From: an uncultured Eubacteriales bacterium
GTDB lineage: Bacteria; Bacillota; Clostridia; HGM11514
Direction of reading: 5' to 3'
NCBI GenBank assembly: GCA_902492655.1
Contig: CABUMF010000007.1
Location: 1,191 to 65,190 of the forward strand
DNA: 64,000 nucleotides
In this document: one piece after another, positions 1 to 57,868 of the stretch
Numbering within the stretch: position 1 is the stretch's first letter
Layout of the letters: every line of letters starts with the position of its first letter
Notes under the pieces: model-generated
The model's input: the letters and a program-made list of their open reading frames with translations, nothing else
What the model was told of the DNA's origin: nothing
Database searches by the model: none
Position numbers and translations under genes: made by a program

Positions 1-451
1 ACATAACGCAGTCAAAGGACGCCTCCGCACACGCCTTGAAATCCCCACGCTGAGCGTATGCGATGTACTGCATAACATTAAGCCCCTGGGTGCAAGCCTT
101 CGTGCAGGCGTTACAGCCCACACAGGCGTAAATTTCGGGGTAGAGCTGCATCATCACGCTGTCGGTGGGCTTGAGCTTTTCGATGTCGTAAGCCTCCTTC
201 ACAAGGGGAAAAAACGGAAGCGTTGCCACATACATATTGTTTTCCACCTTTGTCTGGCAGGCAAGACAGGTCTTAAGCCCCCTGTCCCCCTTTATGCGAT
301 ACACCGTAGCGCAAGCGCCGCAGAAGCCGTTTCGACAGCCACAGCCACGCACCAGGCGGTATCCCACATATTCCATAGCCCTCATAATCGTGAGGCTTTC
401 GGGAACGGAATATTTTTTTCCGAACAAATAAACATCCACGGTATTTTCCAT
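1..451 (-). CDS. Partial (N-terminal part; gene runs off window start) SdhB/FrdB-like iron-sulfur subunit: plant-type 2Fe-2S motif CRNGFCGAC...C followed by 4Fe-4S motif CVGCNACTKAC
   Basis: Manual reverse-complement translation from ATG at 451: MENTVDVYLFGKKYSVPESLTIMRAMEYVGYRLVRGCGCRNGFCGACATV...YACVGCNACTKACTQGL; not in ORF track because no stop inside window; GGAG-like RBS upstream. Confidence 0.5.
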   Translation of the reverse strand, partial: MENTVDVYLFGKKYSVPESLTIMRAMEYVGYRLVRGCGCRNGFCGACATVYRIKGDRGLKTCLACQTKVENNMYVATLPFFPLVKEAYDIEKLKPTDSVMMQLYPEIYACVGCNACTKACTQGLNVMQYIAYAQRGDFKACAEASFDCVM

Positions 452-3286: not shown

Positions 3287-3708
3287 CTTAAATCCTCCGG
3301 TTTTTCAGATTTTCCCAAAGCGGCGACGGTTTTGACAAAATCGTTCATAGTTTCGGCAAACCTTGCGCCCTCCGCCGCGCTAATCCAGGTAAGACGGGTT
3401 CTTTCCTTTTCGATTCCGAGGTAATCGAGAAGCGAAAAAAGGAGCTTCATTCGTCTTCTTGTGTGGTAATTTCCCGAGGTATAGTGGCAGTCGCCAATGT
3501 GGCAACCGCAGATAATCACCCCGTCCGCACCCCTTTGGAAGGCACGAAGAATAAACATGGGGTTAACCCTACAGGAGCATGGAACTCTTATTATTTTAAC
3601 CTCCGCACCGTAGGAAAGCCTGTTGTTTCCGGCAAGGTCAGCACCTGCGTAGGAGCACCAGTTACAGCAAAAAGCCACGATTTTCGGTTTATATTCGGTC
3701 ATTTGCAT
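3274..3708 (-). CDS. mvhD: Methyl-viologen-reducing hydrogenase delta subunit homolog (MvhD/FlxD)
   Basis: 144 aa; cysteine pattern CCNWC...CSC...CGCHIGDCHY typical of MvhD; immediately downstream of hdrA with start/stop overlap. Confidence 0.8.
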   Translation of the reverse strand: MQMTEYKPKIVAFCCNWCSYAGADLAGNNRLSYGAEVKIIRVPCSCRVNPMFILRAFQRGADGVIICGCHIGDCHYTSGNYHTRRRMKLLFSLLDYLGIEKERTRLTWISAAEGARFAETMNDFVKTVAALGKSEKPEDLRCKK

Positions 3709-37204: not shown

Positions 37205-37334
37205 AATAATTATTCCTTAATCTTTCATTATTCATTTTTCACTATTCATTGAGTTCATTTTTGATGAACTCATTATATCACATAACGCTCTGAAATACAA
37301 GAATTATTTGAGGTTCGTGGCAAAAAAAGAAAGG

Positions 37335-37372
37335 GTATAGCAAAATTTCAATAAATCATTTTGCTACACCCT
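37335..37372 (-). terminator. Terminator downstream of fucO
   Basis: 14-bp stem gggtatagcaaaat/attttgctacaccc; U-run on minus strand (and weaker on plus). Confidence 0.45.
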
Positions 37373-37497
37373 CTTTTAGGGCTGAAGAAAAATAGTGCAG
37401 AATGGACAAACTGAGGCAAAACAAGATTTTTGCTTGTTTTGCGTACCCGAAGCTGTATGAGATACTGCGAGAGGCGAAGTTTGTTCATAGCATAAAG
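37369..37497 (-). repeat. B-element copy (inverted relative to 57281..57399) lying in fucO 3' UTR
   Basis: About 125 nt with about 85% identity to reverse complement of 57281..57399, including the hairpin region with compensatory changes. Confidence 0.5.
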
Positions 37498-37558
37498 TAT
37501 ATAATTTTATTCAAAATTATTGTACTTTATGCGATCTGTGCATTTTTATGCAGTCCAA

Positions 37559-38716
37559 TTACATAAGCTTGAGATAAAGCTCCTTTATTTCTTCCACGCT
37601 TGTATCCCTTGGGTTTCCGGGACGGCAAGCATCGTCGAATGCGGACTGCGCAAGGAAGTCAACATCCTCTTTCTTCACGATTTCCTTAAGGTCGGCAGGT
37701 ATTCCAACATCGCTCGAAAGCTTCTTGACAGCATCGATTGCGGCTTTCCTTGCATCCTCAAGGCTCATATCGTCCACGCCGCAAACGCCCATAGCCTTTG
37801 CGATGTCCCTGTACTTTTCGCCCGTTGCGGGAGCATTGTATTCCATAACCGTAGGAAGAATTATAGCGTTTGCAATGCCGTGGGGGGTGTCATAAAGAGC
37901 TCCCAGGGGGTGAGCCATCGAATGAACAATGCCAAGGCCTACATTTGAAAAGCCCATTCCGGCAATGTACTGTCCGAGAGCCATGCCTTCCCTGCCCTCG
38001 GTTGTGTTTTCAACCGCTCCGCGAAGGTTCTTTGCGATTATCTCGATAGCCTTGATGTGGAACATATCGCTCATTTCCCATGCACCCTTTGTGATATAGC
38101 CCTCGATTGCGTGGGTTAAAGCGTCCATTCCGGTAGCGGCGGTAAGCCCTTTCGGCATTGTTGACATCATGTCGGGGTCGACAACCGCAACAACGGGAAT
38201 GTCATGAACATCAACGCAAACCATTTTGCGGTTCTTTTGCGCATCGGTGATAACATAGTTTATGGTTACCTCAGCCGCCGTACCTGCCGTTGTGGGGACA
38301 GCGATAATCGGTGTGCATTTGTTTTTTGTGGGAGCAACGCCTTCCAGAGAGCGCACATCGGCAAATTCGGGATTTTCAACAATTATGCCGATTGCCTTTG
38401 CGGTGTCCATTGAGGAACCGCCCCCGATTGCAACAATGCAGTCCGCACCGCTTGCCTTAAAGGCAGCAACACCCGACTGAACATTTTCGATTGTCGGATT
38501 TGCCTTGATTTCGCTGAAAAGCTCGTAAGGGATTTTAGCATTATCAAGAACATCGGTAACCTTTTTTGTAACATCGAACTTGATAAGGTCGGGGTCCGAG
38601 CATACGAACGCCTTTTTGAAAGCCCTTGCCTTAATTTCGGTTGCAATTTCGTTAATTGCGCCCTTGCCGTGATAGCTTGTTTCGTTGAGAACAAATCTGT
38701 TTGCCATAAATTTCAC
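37559..38716 (-). CDS. fucO: Lactaldehyde reductase / 1,2-propanediol oxidoreductase (Fe-dependent alcohol dehydrogenase)
   Basis: MANRFVLNETSYHGKGAI... very close to E. coli FucO (MANRMILNETAWFGRGAV...) along the full length as recalled from memory. Confidence 0.85.
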   Translation of the reverse strand: MKFMANRFVLNETSYHGKGAINEIATEIKARAFKKAFVCSDPDLIKFDVTKKVTDVLDNAKIPYELFSEIKANPTIENVQSGVAAFKASGADCIVAIGGGSSMDTAKAIGIIVENPEFADVRSLEGVAPTKNKCTPIIAVPTTAGTAAEVTINYVITDAQKNRKMVCVDVHDIPVVAVVDPDMMSTMPKGLTAATGMDALTHAIEGYITKGAWEMSDMFHIKAIEIIAKNLRGAVENTTEGREGMALGQYIAGMGFSNVGLGIVHSMAHPLGALYDTPHGIANAIILPTVMEYNAPATGEKYRDIAKAMGVCGVDDMSLEDARKAAIDAVKKLSSDVGIPADLKEIVKKEDVDFLAQSAFDDACRPGNPRDTSVEEIKELYLKLM

Positions 38717-39045: not shown

Positions 39046-40125
39046 TTAATACTTGGGAGACATTCCAAATATACCTGTGAGCATTTTGTAGACATTATAA
39101 CTACCCATTTTTATATCAACAGTATTTGCAACAATTCTGCACCATTGTTCAATTCGATTTTCACATATATCTTTCGCTTTCCAGTATTCAAGAAGCGTTG
39201 ACAAATTTGCATTCATGATTGTTTCGGCAATTAATTCTTTATGAGTATTTATTCTCCCGAAAGCGGCAGGCATTTTTTCGAAACACCCATTGATTGTAAC
39301 GATATCAGTTTGTCCACCCGAAGAGAATTGGTCACGAATATGTGTGTCGACAACACTGCAGTTAGAAACTAACCATAATGCATATCGGTCATATTTTGAT
39401 GTTAAGACTTCTGGAAAAAGAGCATATCCGCGAGCACGATATTCATCTTTTAACTCTTTTGAGAGAGAACCCCATAATCTTATAGTAGGAGGAGCAACTA
39501 TATCATCAGGGTTTTCATCTGCTGCCCACCACAAGCTTTCGCCTTCTCTTAATTGATTTTTATAATATTTTGACACAGGAGCAACAGGGTTCTCTAACTT
39601 CCTGAGTTTATCATATGGTATTCCCATTTTATCAAAAATGGTTTCACCGGATTTGAGTTCCATGTCAATTTGATACCGAGGATAATGTGTTACTGATATA
39701 CCCGAAAGACATTCCTCGTAAGGACGACTTTTAAATGCAACAGGAGCTCCCAACTTTCCAAATGTGAGAAAAATCCTTTCAACATTTTGATCACGTGTTG
39801 ATTCTAATATACTGCTTCCTATTGATTTCCAATGATTCTTATTGGTGCTTTTTACCTCCACACCATAAAAACGATTTACAACTATATCAGGGAACGAAGC
39901 TCCTGAAACTAACTGTATTGTACCTTCAAATGGTGTGTTCATTGCGCATCTCGTTAATGCATCACACACATCTTCTTCTAATTGTGTTCCGTTACGTCCT
40001 TTATAGTATGCCTCTCGACCTTTTGCTTCTGTATTGAGTATAGCATCGGTTTTGACCATTAAAGCTCTAAAATCTGCTAAAGATGGTTTTCTATTTTCAG
40101 ATATTATCAATACATTCACCTCCAA
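39046..40125 (-). CDS. Putative type II restriction endonuclease (PD-(D/E)xK fold)
   Basis: 359 aa, overlaps and is co-directional with a C5-MTase gene; candidate catalytic motif SFPDIVV...GVEVKS; AT-rich. Confidence 0.5.
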   Translation of the reverse strand: MEVNVLIISENRKPSLADFRALMVKTDAILNTEAKGREAYYKGRNGTQLEEDVCDALTRCAMNTPFEGTIQLVSGASFPDIVVNRFYGVEVKSTNKNHWKSIGSSILESTRDQNVERIFLTFGKLGAPVAFKSRPYEECLSGISVTHYPRYQIDMELKSGETIFDKMGIPYDKLRKLENPVAPVSKYYKNQLREGESLWWAADENPDDIVAPPTIRLWGSLSKELKDEYRARGYALFPEVLTSKYDRYALWLVSNCSVVDTHIRDQFSSGGQTDIVTINGCFEKMPAAFGRINTHKELIAETIMNANLSTLLEYWKAKDICENRIEQWCRIVANTVDIKMGSYNVYKMLTGIFGMSPKY

Positions 40126-41884: not shown

Positions 41885-41973
41885 CGGAGAGAAAGGGATT
41901 CGAACCCTTGAACGGGTATTAGCCGTTACACGATTTCCAGTCGTGCGCCTTAGACCAGCTCAGCCATCTCTCC
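41885..41973 (-). tRNA. tRNA-Ser (anticodon GGA), class II with long variable arm
   Basis: Minus-strand GGAGAGATGGCTGAGCTGGTCTAAGGCGCACGACTGGAAATCGTGTAACGGCTAATACCCGTTCAAGGGTTCGAATCCCTTTCTCTCCG; cloverleaf foldable by eye; no encoded CCA. Confidence 0.8.
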
Positions 41974-48236: not shown

Positions 48237-48332
48237 GTAAAAGGGAGTAGCAGACGGCAGATGAGCCGTTTCTGGTGCGTCATTACGGCGGAATATCCGC
48301 CCGCTGCAGAATTAAATTGCGAGACTTTTGCC
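48237..48332 (+). ncRNA. Truncated copy of structured leader RNA (riboswitch-like), paralog of 55016..55137
   Basis: Single-stranded blocks identical to the 55 kb copy, two stems differ but retain pairing; terminator 3' half missing. Confidence 0.4.
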
Positions 48333-48335
48333 TAC

Positions 48336-48600
48336 AAATGATATGTGGGCGCAATCATAGTTGCGGCATATTCCTACATGGCTCTTGTGCCGGTTGTTCA
48401 GCCGCCGGTTATAAAGCTTCTGACGACCGAATCGGAGCGAAAAATCAGAATGGAATACAAACAGAAATCCGTTTCCAAGCTGACGAAAATACTCTTCCCG
48501 ATTATAATTACGGTAATCACCGGTATTGTTTCTCCCAAAAGCGTTGCCTCGTCGGATTTTTGATGTTCGGAAATCTTTTTGAATCAAAGCTTAACAATTT
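48336..48600 (+). pseudogene. Fragment of an oadB paralog (corresponds to roughly residues 157-235 of the 55167..56282 product, then frameshifted)
   Basis: Track ORF 48345..48563 MGAIIVAAYSYMALVPVVQPPVIKLLTTESERKIRMEYKQKSVSKLTKILFPIIITVITGIVSPKSV aligns to internal part of OadB; about 80% nt identity; homology continues out of frame. Confidence 0.55.
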
Positions 48601-55015: not shown

Positions 55016-55137
55016 GTAAAAGGGAGTAGCAAACGAATAATCGTTTCTGATGCGTCATTACGGCAAATTTTGCCCGCTACAGAATTAAATTGCGAGACTT
55101 TTGCTGTATTTATGCGGCAGAAGTCTCGTTTTTTAAT
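55016..55137 (+). ncRNA. Structured 5' leader (riboswitch-like) ending in intrinsic terminator, upstream of oadB
   Basis: Conserved box GUAAAAGGGAGUAGCA, two hairpins with compensatory substitutions relative to copy at 48237..48332, terminator cgagactt..aagtctcg + U6. Confidence 0.5.
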
Positions 55138-55166: not shown

Positions 55167-56282
55167 ATGTCTGAATTGTTTTCAAACGCAGTCAACATAC
55201 AATGGCAGCAGGTTGTAATGTGGCTTATAGGCGGTCTGTTGATTTATCTTGCAATCAAAAAGGATATGGAGCCTACGCTTCTTTTGCCCATGGGGTTCGG
55301 AGCGATTTTGGTTAACCTTCCTCTTTCGGGGGCGGTTACGCAGGGGAGCGAAAAGGGCGTAATTGATGTACTTTTTGATGCAGGCATCGCAAATGAGCTT
55401 TTTCCGCTTCTGCTTTTTATCGGAATAGGCGCGATGATTGACTTCGGCCCGCTTCTTTCAAACCCGAAGCTCATGATTTTCGGTGCTGCGGCGCAGTTCG
55501 GAATATTCTTTACATTGGGAGTTGCGTCCCTTTTGGGCTTTGAGCTTAAGGATGCGGCATCAATCGCAATCATCGGTGCGGCGGACGGTCCCACATCAAT
55601 CTTTGTTGCACAGCACTTTGCATCAAAATATGTCGGTGCAATTATGGTTGCGGCGTACTCGTACATGGCGCTTGTTCCTGTTGTTCAGCCGCCTGTAATC
55701 AGGCTTCTCACAACAAAGTCCGAAAGAAAAATCAAAATGGATTACAAGCAGAAGTCCGTTTCAAAGCTTGCAAAAATCCTTTTTCCGATTATTATTACAA
55801 TCATCACCGGAATTGTATCACCTAAAAGCGTAGCCCTGATCGGCTTTTTGATGTTCGGAAATCTCATAAGGGAATGCGGAGTGCTCGATTCGCTTTCCGA
55901 AACCGCACAGAAGGTTCTGGCAAACCTTGTAACCCTTTTCCTCGGAATAACGATAGCCACAAAAATGCAGGCGGAGCTTTTCCTCACAAAGGAAACCCTT
56001 ATGATTATAGGTCTGGGGCTTGTGGCATTTATATTTGACACCGCAGGCGGCGTTATTTTTGCGAAAGTCCTCAATCTGTTCCTCAAAAAGGGCAAGAAAA
56101 TCAACCCCATGATCGGTGCGGCGGGCATTTCGGCATTTCCTATGTCCGCAAGGGTTGTGCATAAGCTCGGGCTCGAGGAGGATAATCAGAATTTCCTTCT
56201 TATGCACTCAATCGGGGTTAATGTTTCGGGACAGATTGCGTCGGTTATCGCAGGCGGCATGATTCTTAATCTTATCAAATGA
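55167..56282 (+). CDS. oadB: Na+-translocating decarboxylase beta subunit (OadB/GcdB/MmdB family)
   Basis: MSELFSNAVNIQWQQVVMWLIGGLLIYLAIKKDMEPTLLLPMGFGAILVNLP resembles OadB N-terminus; start at ATG 55167 preferred over GTG 55155. Confidence 0.8.
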   Translation: MSELFSNAVNIQWQQVVMWLIGGLLIYLAIKKDMEPTLLLPMGFGAILVNLPLSGAVTQGSEKGVIDVLFDAGIANELFPLLLFIGIGAMIDFGPLLSNPKLMIFGAAAQFGIFFTLGVASLLGFELKDAASIAIIGAADGPTSIFVAQHFASKYVGAIMVAAYSYMALVPVVQPPVIRLLTTKSERKIKMDYKQKSVSKLAKILFPIIITIITGIVSPKSVALIGFLMFGNLIRECGVLDSLSETAQKVLANLVTLFLGITIATKMQAELFLTKETLMIIGLGLVAFIFDTAGGVIFAKVLNLFLKKGKKINPMIGAAGISAFPMSARVVHKLGLEEDNQNFLLMHSIGVNVSGQIASVIAGGMILNLIK

Positions 56283-56428: not shown

Positions 56429-57148
56429 ATGATAAGAGTTTTGGTATGGAACGAATTTCAACACGAAAAGACGCAGGAGGCAGTAAAAAAGATTTACCCT
56501 GACGGTATGCATACTGCCATAAAGGAATTTTTGGAATGTGAGGAGGACATCACCGTCAAAACCGCAACGCTGGATGACGAAAACTGCGGTATAACCGATG
56601 AAATTCTTGCACAAACCGATGTTCTTTTATGGTGGGGGCATTGCTACCACGATAAGGTTCCCGATGAGGTGGCATCAGCGGTTCAGAGGGCGGTTCTTAA
56701 GGGAATGGGCTTTATTCCGCTTCATTCGGCGCATCATTCAAAGCCCTTCAAGCTTCTTATGGGAACAACCTGCAACCTTTCCTGGCGTGAGGACGGGGAT
56801 TTTGAAAGAATTTGGATTTTGGATCACTCCCACCCCATTACAAAGGATTTGGGAAGATACATATATCTTGAGCATGAGGAAACCTATGCCGAGCCTTTTG
56901 GCATTCCCGAGCCCGACAAACTGCTTATGATAGGCAGCTATGAGGGCGGCGAGGTATTCCGTTCGGGGTGCGTGTATCGCCGCGGAAACGGAAGAATATT
57001 CTATTTCCAGCCCGGGCATGAATCCTTCCCCACATATTACAACAAGGATGTTCAGAAGGTAATCGTAAACGCAGTGAGATGGGTAGCGCCCGTAATGAGG
57101 GTTGACGATCTTCCCTGTCCGATGATAAAGAAGATAGAAGGTAAATAG
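56429..57148 (+). CDS. ThuA-like (type 1 glutamine amidotransferase-like) protein
   Basis: 239 aa from ATG 56429 (MIRVLVWNEFQHE...) with AAAGGAGAGAAG RBS; ThuA-like segments FIPLHSAHHS, FYFQPGHE. Confidence 0.65.
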   Translation: MIRVLVWNEFQHEKTQEAVKKIYPDGMHTAIKEFLECEEDITVKTATLDDENCGITDEILAQTDVLLWWGHCYHDKVPDEVASAVQRAVLKGMGFIPLHSAHHSKPFKLLMGTTCNLSWREDGDFERIWILDHSHPITKDLGRYIYLEHEETYAEPFGIPEPDKLLMIGSYEGGEVFRSGCVYRRGNGRIFYFQPGHESFPTYYNKDVQKVIVNAVRWVAPVMRVDDLPCPMIKKIEGK

Positions 57149-57157
57149 GGGCGTAAA

Positions 57158-57290
57158 TCAAAATGCGCACACCGCATAAAGCGCAAAAACCACGAAAAAA
57201 TTGCGGTTAACAGCGGTCAAAAGCACAAACTTTTCAGCATGAAAATCCGTAATACAATGATTTTCTAAAATCAAAACGCTTTATGCTATG
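57158..57290 (+). repeat. A-element copy 1 (about 135 nt) in thuA 3' UTR
   Basis: Tandem with 57414..57551 (about 80% identity). Confidence 0.5.
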
Positions 57291-57399
57291 AACAAACTTC
57301 GCCTCTCGCTGTATCACATACAGCTTCGGGTAACCAAAAGCAAGGTCTTGCCTTGCTTTTGCTCAGTTTGTCCATTCTGCACTATTTTTCTTCACCCCC
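57281..57399 (+). repeat. B-element (about 120 nt) with conserved hairpins; inverted copy at 37369..37497
   Basis: Contains palindrome gctgtatcacatacagc and 11-bp hairpin caaaagcaagg/ccttgcttttg. Confidence 0.5.
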
Positions 57400-57413
57400 A
57401 AGGTGACAAAATT

Positions 57414-57570
57414 AAAACGCACACACCGCATAAAGCACAAAAATCAAAAATAATTTACGGATAACAGCGGACAAAAGCATAAACTTGTCAGCATGAAAAT
57501 CCGTAATATGTTGTTTCCTAAAATCAAAACGCTTTATGCTATGCACTGTTTTTCTTCACCCCATTTAAAC
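57414..57570 (+). repeat. A-element copy 2 followed by truncated B-element tail
   Basis: A2 ends with tttatgctatg then cactgtttttcttcacccc (3' end of B). Confidence 0.5.
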
Positions 57571-57574
57571 CATG

Positions 57575-57610
57575 ATAACACAAAAAGCCGCGGATTTTTT
57601 CCGCGGCTTT
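57575..57610 (-). terminator. Terminator of rpsF-ssb-rpsR operon
   Basis: Hairpin aaagccgcgg..ccgcggcttt + U-run on minus strand. Confidence 0.55.
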
Positions 57611-57622
57611 GGTTAATTACAA

Positions 57623-57868
57623 TCAATCTGTTGTGAAAGGCAAAAGTGCGATGTGTCTTGCCCTCTTGATAGCTTCTGTAAGCTGTCTCTGATGCTGAGC
57701 GCAAGTACCTGTAATTCTGCGTGGCAGAATTTTAGCTCTATCGGAGATATATCTGCGAAGCTTAGCAACATCCTTATAATCAATGCTTTCAGCCTTTTCA
57801 ACACAAAAAGCACAAACCTTTTTCTTAGGCTTACGACCTCTCATGGGTTTCTGTTCTCTTTCAGCCAT
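57623..57868 (-). CDS. rpsR: 30S ribosomal protein S18
   Basis: 81 aa, typical S18 sequence (CAFCVEK...[21 protein letters not shown]). Confidence 0.9.

Follow-up and report, generated by a model that had tools for sequence, protein, structure and literature searches.

What occupies the short spacer in which a ThuA-family gene, ending at 57148 on the plus strand, converges on rpsR, which ends at 57623 on the minus strand, and why does related sequence recur downstream of an iron-dependent alcohol dehydrogenase (FucO-like) gene on the minus strand? An earlier note on the 64,000-nt stretch of DNA analysed here (the window) had described two separate repeat elements, A and B, in the 3' UTRs of these genes. 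The matches on which that description was based are confirmed, with direct repeats at 57155-57254 versus 57409-57508 (100 nt, 86% identity) and 57261-57293 versus 57514-57546 (33 nt, 94%) and inverted copies at 37437-37497 versus 57279-57339 (61 nt, 93%) and 37376-37425 versus 57352-57401 (50 nt, 90%). Diagnostic 19-27-mers occur two or three times in the window against 0.00-0.06 expected from shuffles, and the repeats are far beyond chance. The two features ascribed to B, the palindrome GCTGTAT-CAC-ATACAGC (57308-57324) and a hairpin whose stem has changed in a compensated manner (57335-57361 versus 37416-37442), are likewise both present.

The division into A and B did not hold up. Unit boundaries became clear from the rpsR-thuA spacers of other assemblies, and A and B are domains of one modular, folded unit of ~170-265 nt in which the core, a hairpin within it (hp1) and the loop of a helix termed P1 are each optional. 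The sequence near fucO had been taken for a further inverted copy of B; an inverted B does lie there, but not B alone, as a short version of A is present at 37498-37549 (GCATAAAGTA...TACTTTATGC versus GCATAAAGCG...CGCTTTATGC) and, read on the minus strand, stands upstream of B (AAAATGCACAGATCGCATAAAGTA...TACTTTATGCTATG). Both loci therefore hold the same composite, and the fucO copy is a complete unit.

Read 5' to 3' antisense to thuA and fucO, a unit consists of P0, a three-way junction, the P2 core and P1. P0 is a closing helix of ~23 bp (GGGGcuuuAGAAAAAU-A-GUGCAGA / UCUGUGC-AUUUUu...CCCC), tandem G.U pairs included, which is formed by the complementary head and tail of the unit. P2 is the conserved core helix that carries the hairpins hp1 and hp2, and its purine-rich junction strands (GAG, nnUACCCGAA and GAGnGGCGA across copies) are near-invariant; the conserved blocks flanking the compensated hairpin, formerly described as single-stranded, are in part paired within this helix (GGACAAACT/AGTTTGTTC). 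P1 (GCAUAAAGnn/nnCUUUAUGC) has a variable loop that may contain a further hairpin, P3. In the rpsR direction the unit thus reads head GGGGTGAAGAAAAAYAGTG, optional core, CATAGCATAAAGCG, optional loop insert and finally CGCTTTATGCGGTGTGCGCATTTTkATTyAsCCCC. The core, hp1, the P1 loop or everything but P0 can be dispensed with, and conservation is lower at the unit ends (P0) than in the interior core. Hairpin P3 in the interior of A (AGAAAUUCG...CGAAUUUC and variants) is conserved and covarying, so the interior of A is part of the ancestral unit and not filler. Two subfamilies can be distinguished, type I (head GGGGCTTTAGAAAAATAGTG, P1 GCATAAAG, tail GTGCATTTTGCTACAGCCCC) and type II (head GGGGATAGGAAAAAAGAT, P1 GCAAGAAAA, tail GGGCTTTTTTTACATCCCC), which occur together on contig L020. 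Neither strand of the unit holds a conserved ORF, the frame leading to the conserved 3' block being spread 3/5/3 over the three frames. A small protein or type I toxin gene was rejected, as there is no conserved frame and a start codon is absent in several units.

An nhmmer profile built from 16 units recovers exactly three units in the window, at two loci in 64 kb, and one hairpin that consists of P0 only is found in addition. Unit 1 (57148-57399, minus strand), delimited by reading the sequence and matched by nhmmer at 57400-57149 (E=1.6e-56), is full length and comprises the former A1 and B: it has head GGGGGTGAAGAAAAATAGTG, a core, P1 with a long loop that holds P3, and tail GCGGTGTGCGCATTTTGATTTACGCCCC, the last G of which is shared with the thuA stop codon TAG (57146-57148). 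Its predicted fold contains the closing helix and the three-way junction. The core domain of this unit (57285-57379, minus strand), which is the former B, scores 105.7 bits with covariance model R1 (E=4.6e-24) and is made up of P2 arms at 57365-57375 and 57288-57298, hp1 at 57335-57361, hp2 at 57308-57324 and the conserved junction strands GAG, UACCCGAA and GAGAGGCGA. Unit 2 (57402-57562, minus strand) is core-less and runs from head GGGGTGAAGAAAAACAGTG through P1 with a P3-bearing loop to a tail ending in GTGTGCGTTTTAATTTTGTCACC; it corresponds to the former A2 together with what had been called a truncated B tail, which is in fact the head of this unit. Its nhmmer match (57546-57412, E=2.5e-10) is confined to the P1/tail half of the profile. 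Unit 3 (37379-37556, plus strand; nhmmer 37377-37557, E=1.2e-42), with head GGGCTGAAGAAAAATAGTG and tail GCGATCTGTGCATTTTTATGCAGTCC, combines a core with a short P1 loop and ends 2 nt from the fucO stop codon (37559-37561, minus strand). Its core domain (37398-37491, plus strand), the former inverted copy of B, scores 87.4 bits (R1, E=2.3e-19), and an identical copy of unit 3 is present at metagenome locus L042.

The window also contains repeats of other kinds. A 33-nt sequence, GCCCGCTGCAGAATTAAATTGCGAGACTTTTGC, is repeated with 97% identity at 48299-48331 and 55072-55104, one of the two copies separating an AraC-like gene from the gene preceding thuA, which encodes the beta subunit of oxaloacetate decarboxylase; next comes a 208-nt repeat (48341-48548 versus 55628-55835, 80%), and a shared operator or leader ahead of paralogous genes may be present here. 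Between ~15400 and 31800 there are many direct repeats (75-90% identity, 50-300 nt; families D1-D11) at spacings of ~2.8 kb and 9 kb, which look like tandem paralogous genes. Adjoining the fucO-like gene is a 359-aa ORF (39046-40125, minus strand) without a Pfam match.

Both window loci involve terminator hairpins. Units 1 and 2 sit between the thuA stop codon and the native bidirectional terminator hairpin of rpsR and thuA (57584-57610; GCCGCGGA...TCCGCGGC; terminator scan), which is outside the repeat family and is also found in the empty sites L003, L007 and L010. At fucO, the earlier placement of B between the stop codon and the terminator holds, but the hairpin concerned (37333-37371; GGGTATAGCAAAAT-(11 nt)-ATTTTGCTACACCC, flanked by an A-run and T-runs) is a predicted terminator for fucO (minus strand) and, judged from its sequence, itself a member of the family in which only the closing helix is left. 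With one mismatch, its 3' arm corresponds to the type I tail (TTTTGCTACAsCCC), and on the plus strand the hairpin is followed by TCTTTTA and then by the head of unit 3. Inspection by eye shows a 14-bp stem, behind which the fucO strand reads TTTCTTTTTTT and the opposite strand TCTTTT; the terminator scanner made no call here, the loop of 11 nt exceeding its maximum of 8. Apart from the P0 arms of the full units, this hairpin is the only terminator in the window that matches the tail motif, and the idea that all window terminators are family members was rejected on this ground.

Strains differ in the units that they carry at one locus. Other assemblies have the same rpsR-thuA flanks around a spacer of 58-475 nt with zero, one or two units that differ in their modules: L001 is identical to the window, L002, L004, L005 and L008 contain one or two units with different modules, and L003, L007 and L010 have the native terminator only, in a spacer of 58-59 nt. 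The C-terminus of ThuA is identical in filled and empty sites, and a change of the thuA frame by insertion was therefore rejected. In related species there are no units at rpsR-thuA, and the nhmmer profile found none in ~100 kb of their sequence. Contig L009 ends at 3390-3416 in an Illumina adapter (AGATCGGAAGAGCACACGTCTGAA) directly after rpsR, an assembly artefact at the point where repeats would begin.

Beyond this locus, the core 18-mer CAGAATGGACAAACTGAG led to 4 viral-contig loci and 47 metagenome loci. The whole architecture is present in 27 of the 47, the remainder being chance matches inside coding sequence, and an additional viral contig, L081, carries two copies without hp1, giving five viral-contig loci (three lineages) with the whole architecture at unrelated positions. 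Several gut Clostridia and three viral-contig lineages thus carry the family at unrelated loci, and the expectation that more copies would be found elsewhere was correct, with ~30 further copies in gut metagenome and viral contigs. Representative genomes, scanned with the P1 20-mer TAGCATAAAGCGTTTTRATT only, gave a single chance match inside a hydrogenase gene and no family member; viral scans with head and P1 patterns found nothing, a degenerate pattern covering the core's 3' side added no new viral lineages, and BLAST of the consensus unit against INPHARED phages and PLSDB plasmids returned no match. A protein look-up found no record of the exact ThuA sequence. A ribosomal protein S6 that shares a 90%-identity cluster with that of the window is annotated as coming from an uncultured Clostridia bacterium, which identifies the source organism as such. 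Some cores end within hp2 and join other repeat families. Such other intergenic families are present in the same human-gut organism (L025 4260-4740; also L024, L020, L053 and L057), one built on GAACAAGCGTGAGC and another being a 66-nt module with the hairpin GGGCGACC-ACATA-GGGTCGCCC; both are joined to cores truncated inside hp2, which produces mosaic spacers.

The secondary structure is supported by covariation throughout the unit. RNAalifold applied to 15 distinct cores returned P2 (AUGGACAAACU/AGUUUGUUCAU), hp1 and hp2, and folds of whole units lead from P0 through the three-way junction to P2 and P1. A covariance model made from five cores gave 32 matches, and in that alignment 93.1% of cells are in standard pairs versus 83.2% after shuffling, 19 pairs are changed on both sides versus 7.8, none of 500 shuffles attained the observed covariation values and slid partner columns are paired to at most 46%, figures that are somewhat favourable in that the alignment was fitted to the model and its 5' block was fixed by the search pattern. 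Free of this search selection are hp1, hp2, the 3' arm of P2, P1 and P0, each of which covaries independently: hp2 alternates between GCTGTAT/ATACAGC and GGCGTAC/GTACGCC, the top of P0 between GUGCAGA/UCUGUGC and CUUUGGA/UCCGGAG and the outer part of P2 between AUGG/UCAU, ACGG/UCGU and AUCG/CGAU, and P1 appears as GCATAAAGCG, GCAAGAAAA, GCAGTCTATGC and TCACAAAACAA, each with its own complement. The earlier proposal is borne out in that the small structured repeat elements form a family and their compensatory changes are real, and the covariance model that it envisaged from a larger copy set yields strong covariation.

Which strand folds can be judged from the wobble pairs. Among the variable pairs of intact cores we counted 13 G.U against 2 A.C on the head-to-tail strand, together with a conserved G.U in P2, and the corresponding counts are 5 against 0 in P1 and 28 against 3 at the top of P0. 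The same strand also has the lower folding energy in all 14 units compared (mean difference -12.9 kcal/mol), z-scores being similar on both strands. However, the favoured strand is rich in G+T (0.49-0.58) and shuffles trace part of the energy asymmetry to this richness; we therefore downgraded it as proof of the strand and relied on the wobble counts at paired positions. One hypothetical junction pair points the opposite way, being A.C in 18 sequences and better paired on the other strand. From these pairing patterns, the folded strand is most likely, and with fairly high confidence, the one antisense to thuA and fucO. As the wobble statistics favour the antisense strand, the copy in an mRNA-sense 3' UTR would be the less well-paired one. 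The better-pairing strand is often not the strand expected to be abundantly transcribed, and the abundant mRNA should bear the reverse complement at most loci.

The placement of units relative to hairpins and genes follows a pattern. Heads typically start 4-8 T-rich nt past a terminator-like hairpin or past the tail of a preceding unit, and in several genomes the preceding hairpin bears the local tail sequence or subtype and is thus a P0-only unit; hairpins of the P0-only type lie ahead of units in L023, L027, L029, L062, L051 and L033. In every convergent spacer with two known neighbours (7/7), the unit has its head towards the hairpin and its tail towards the stop codon, and at ~12 of the 17 loci with a known tail side the tail is 0-35 nt from the stop codon of a gene on the opposite strand, ahead of that gene's terminator. 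Spacers after tails are T-rich, with an actual T-run behind the tail in only ~7 of 17 full units, and no conserved promoter was found upstream of heads. The earlier statement that B is oriented with the transcription of the upstream gene is not general: next to co-directional neighbours ~7 units are antisense and 4 are sense, both L081 copies among the latter. These L081 copies lie on a phage-like contig among portal, scaffold and terminase-like genes (identified by eye), and the L015 unit directly follows, in antisense, a capsid-like gene. Two contigs with type II units carry arrays of short hairpins upstream of the unit (L055 1-250 and L028 1100-1340), each hairpin being followed by ACATATCGAG in L055 or ACATCATT in L028; the next gene in L055 encodes a phage replisome organiser (PF09681, E=2.6e-18), and the arrays may be a phage replication origin region. 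Contig L051 also holds a glycine riboswitch aptamer (130-237, plus strand; 47.7 bits) that has no relation to its unit.

We regard the units as a strand-specific, modular, structured intergenic repeat family whose members are non-autonomous mobile or duplicative elements with 3'-end roles for the host, a reading in which we place about even confidence; judged from the sequences, the family is probably mobile. Units would settle on the 3' side of stem-loops and, since P0 itself resembles a stem-loop, this would explain the head-to-tail arrays. Movement might depend on the fold of a single-stranded intermediate, either RNA or ssDNA, and might be assisted by a helper factor that recognises the conserved P2 core. 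In the host, units would act as 3'-end structures, P0-only copies working as bidirectional terminators, as at fucO, and full units blocking read-through or exonucleases between convergent genes. Against mobility, we found no transposase or other partner gene and could define neither a target-site duplication nor an exact insertion junction, the flanks of ~25 units having no duplicated bases in common (L012 alone has TA on each side) and the empty sites being too divergent. The model of the earlier note, in which the elements act in the sense mRNA of thuA and fucO as 3' UTR stabilisers or regulators through a fold of the mRNA strand, appears improbable to us. Its positional part stands, both for the two window loci and for most others: the tails that begin 0-35 nt past a stop codon and before the terminator (~12/17) make co-transcription as the reverse complement very likely, a phage copy directly follows a capsid gene, and the reverse strand is also strongly structured (z about -6). 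There is also a precedent, as REP elements of E. coli that lie no more than 15 nt from a stop codon have been reported to affect translation and mRNA decay. However, the wobble counts (13:2, 5:0 and 28:3) favour the opposite strand, the mRNA strand would have two adjacent A.C mismatches at the top of P0 and a conserved A.C in P2, orientation is mixed (7 antisense versus 4 sense, including both L081 copies) and the genes next to units have no function in common. A simple duplication in place, or a decaying pseudo-sequence without a family, could have been suspected from the two loci within the window, and is scarcely credible given ~30 further copies in unrelated contexts and samples and compensatory changes in every helix, which contradict it.

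Two further explanations take the fold itself as the functional entity. The full unit could be a multicopy structured non-coding RNA of ~250 nt (protein-binding, guide-like or a new ribozyme) whose transcription runs from head to tail and whose active or binding site is the conserved P2 junction, core-less and P0-only copies being decayed derivatives. The near-invariance of the P2 stem and junctions over two subfamilies, hosts of differing GC and phage contigs, with covarying stems, is what such a gene would show, as are the G.U pairs on the head-to-tail strand, the closing helix that brings the two ends together, in some copies with a U-run behind it, as is typical of stable small RNAs, and the sharing of contig L020 by both subfamilies. 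We nevertheless consider an RNA gene doubtful, as heads are not preceded by a conserved promoter and usually lie 4-8 nt past a terminator, many copies are without the core or hp1, strains differ in whether a housekeeping locus carries a copy, truncated cores continue into other repeat families, no known RNA class was matched and the junctions are, on inspection, unlike the hammerhead core. Alternatively, the fold would matter only in single-stranded DNA and have no RNA function, the mover being a hairpin-acting HUH/Y1 transposase (IS200/IS605 or REP-associated RAYT) or a comparable recombinase specific for hairpins of one strand, which inserts beside other hairpins. Strand-specific pairing with tolerated G.T, units directly 3' of hairpins and of each other, and presence or absence between strains agree with this, and snap-back copying of the tail could yield the perfect P0-only palindromes. 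We think it unlikely all the same: none of seven ORFs screened is a Y1/HUH gene, the left end has no constant tetra- or pentanucleotide, elements derived from IS200/IS605 have subterminal hairpins and not a closing helix that joins the ends, and the two window loci are opposite in orientation despite neighbours that are mostly on the minus strand, which leaves no consistent replication-strand bias (n=2).

Given the deep conservation of the P2 junction against variable ends, a real functional RNA is conceivable. A bolder version, which we put forward tentatively and consider rather unlikely, is that the full unit represents a new class of mobile structured RNA of ~250 nt with an ultraconserved three-way-junction core that is catalytic or recruits a protein, and that it homes in gut Clostridia and their phages to sites just 3' of intrinsic terminators; the element would then be selfish and RNA-based while also providing its hosts with terminators. 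If the preferred reading is correct, uncultured gut Clostridia and some phages have a previously uncatalogued structured repeat family, one that reshapes the 3' ends of genes and can supply bidirectional terminators. With its unusually clear covariation it is well suited to become a new Rfam family, and the many copies at contig ends suggest that it probably breaks short-read assemblies.

We conclude that this structured modular repeat beside terminator hairpins in uncultured gut Clostridia and some phage contigs is undescribed. Rfam, to which the earlier note had pointed, has no matching family: Rfam 15 found only a tRNA and the glycine riboswitch in the window and 13 loci, both outside units, the 89-nt tRNA gene (41885-41973, minus strand; 56.6 bits) being the sole match in the window, and permissive scans of 57000-57700 and four loci gave chance-level matches that fell well short of the gathering threshold of the respective family in every case (at most 33.9 bits against 50). 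A full-text literature search for conserved strings returned only unrelated human primer sequences, and a keyword search only general reviews on MITEs and REPs (PMC3184786, PMC10969869). Several known classes were considered and set aside. Integron attC sites do not apply, as unit ends have no GTTRRRY and the arrays lie beside housekeeping genes and are without ORFs; a hammerhead ribozyme needs CUGAUGA and GAAA strands, from which the junction strands of the core differ, and the Rfam scans, in which the hammerhead families are included, gave no match to them; the junction strands, on inspection, do not fit a kink-turn either.

The REP/MITE-like comparison drawn earlier was reasonable, within limits. 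With REP/BIME the units share mosaic arrays in convergent spacers and 3' UTRs, strain variation, strand-specific hairpin features and an association with mRNA 3' ends. However, a REP is a single hairpin of 20-40 nt marked by a GTAG or CGTC tag, and successive copies in an array face opposite ways, whereas the units described here are multi-helix structures of 170-265 nt, arranged head to tail, with heads that start with GGGG and, on inspection, no GTAG/CGTC tag; no RAYT gene was seen in the 64-kb window or the short contigs. MITEs such as the Correia elements of Neisseria are similarly shorter than 300 nt, non-coding and bounded by terminal inverted repeats (here P0), vary in presence between strains (here 0, 1 or 2 units at rpsR-thuA) and supply terminators. 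In contrast to a classical inverted-repeat MITE, the ends of our units are less conserved than the interior, and selection for pairing acts on one strand, a pattern that would not arise if inverted repeats were recognised in double-stranded DNA; a non-systematic look at the loci examined showed no ORF bounded by P0 ends that could represent a parent insertion sequence. The family fails the defining features of REP/BIME, attC and hammerhead and meets only some of those of MITEs. Insertion directly behind terminator stem-loops is known from class C group II introns and from some IS200-like elements, and our units likewise have their 5' end a few nt past a terminator-like hairpin and T-run on the same strand; the likeness is positional only, as the units are only ~250 nt long and show no intron domains such as domain V, no reverse transcriptase and no transposase.

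BOX (pneumococcal), ERIC/IRU (enterobacterial) and bcr1 (Bacillus cereus) are all structured modular intergenic repeats, and repeats of this type are not known to have a dedicated mobility enzyme. These families share with ours the length class (100-300 nt), an intergenic position close to the 3' ends of genes, imperfectly palindromic sequence with a predicted RNA fold that is stable, modules that may occur once, several times or not at all, a copy number that varies between strains, the lack of coding capacity and a mobility that is deduced. There is no sequence similarity, and our units differ in having a three-way junction, a core far better conserved than the ends and a distribution over several taxa and phage contigs, in lying directly behind terminator hairpins and in giving rise to P0-only derivatives that are predicted terminators. 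No described repeat class explains this combination of a conserved interior junction, variable ends, strand-specific pairing and placement after terminators, which, if it holds, would offer a practical starting point in the search for the enzyme or RNA activity by which such elements spread.
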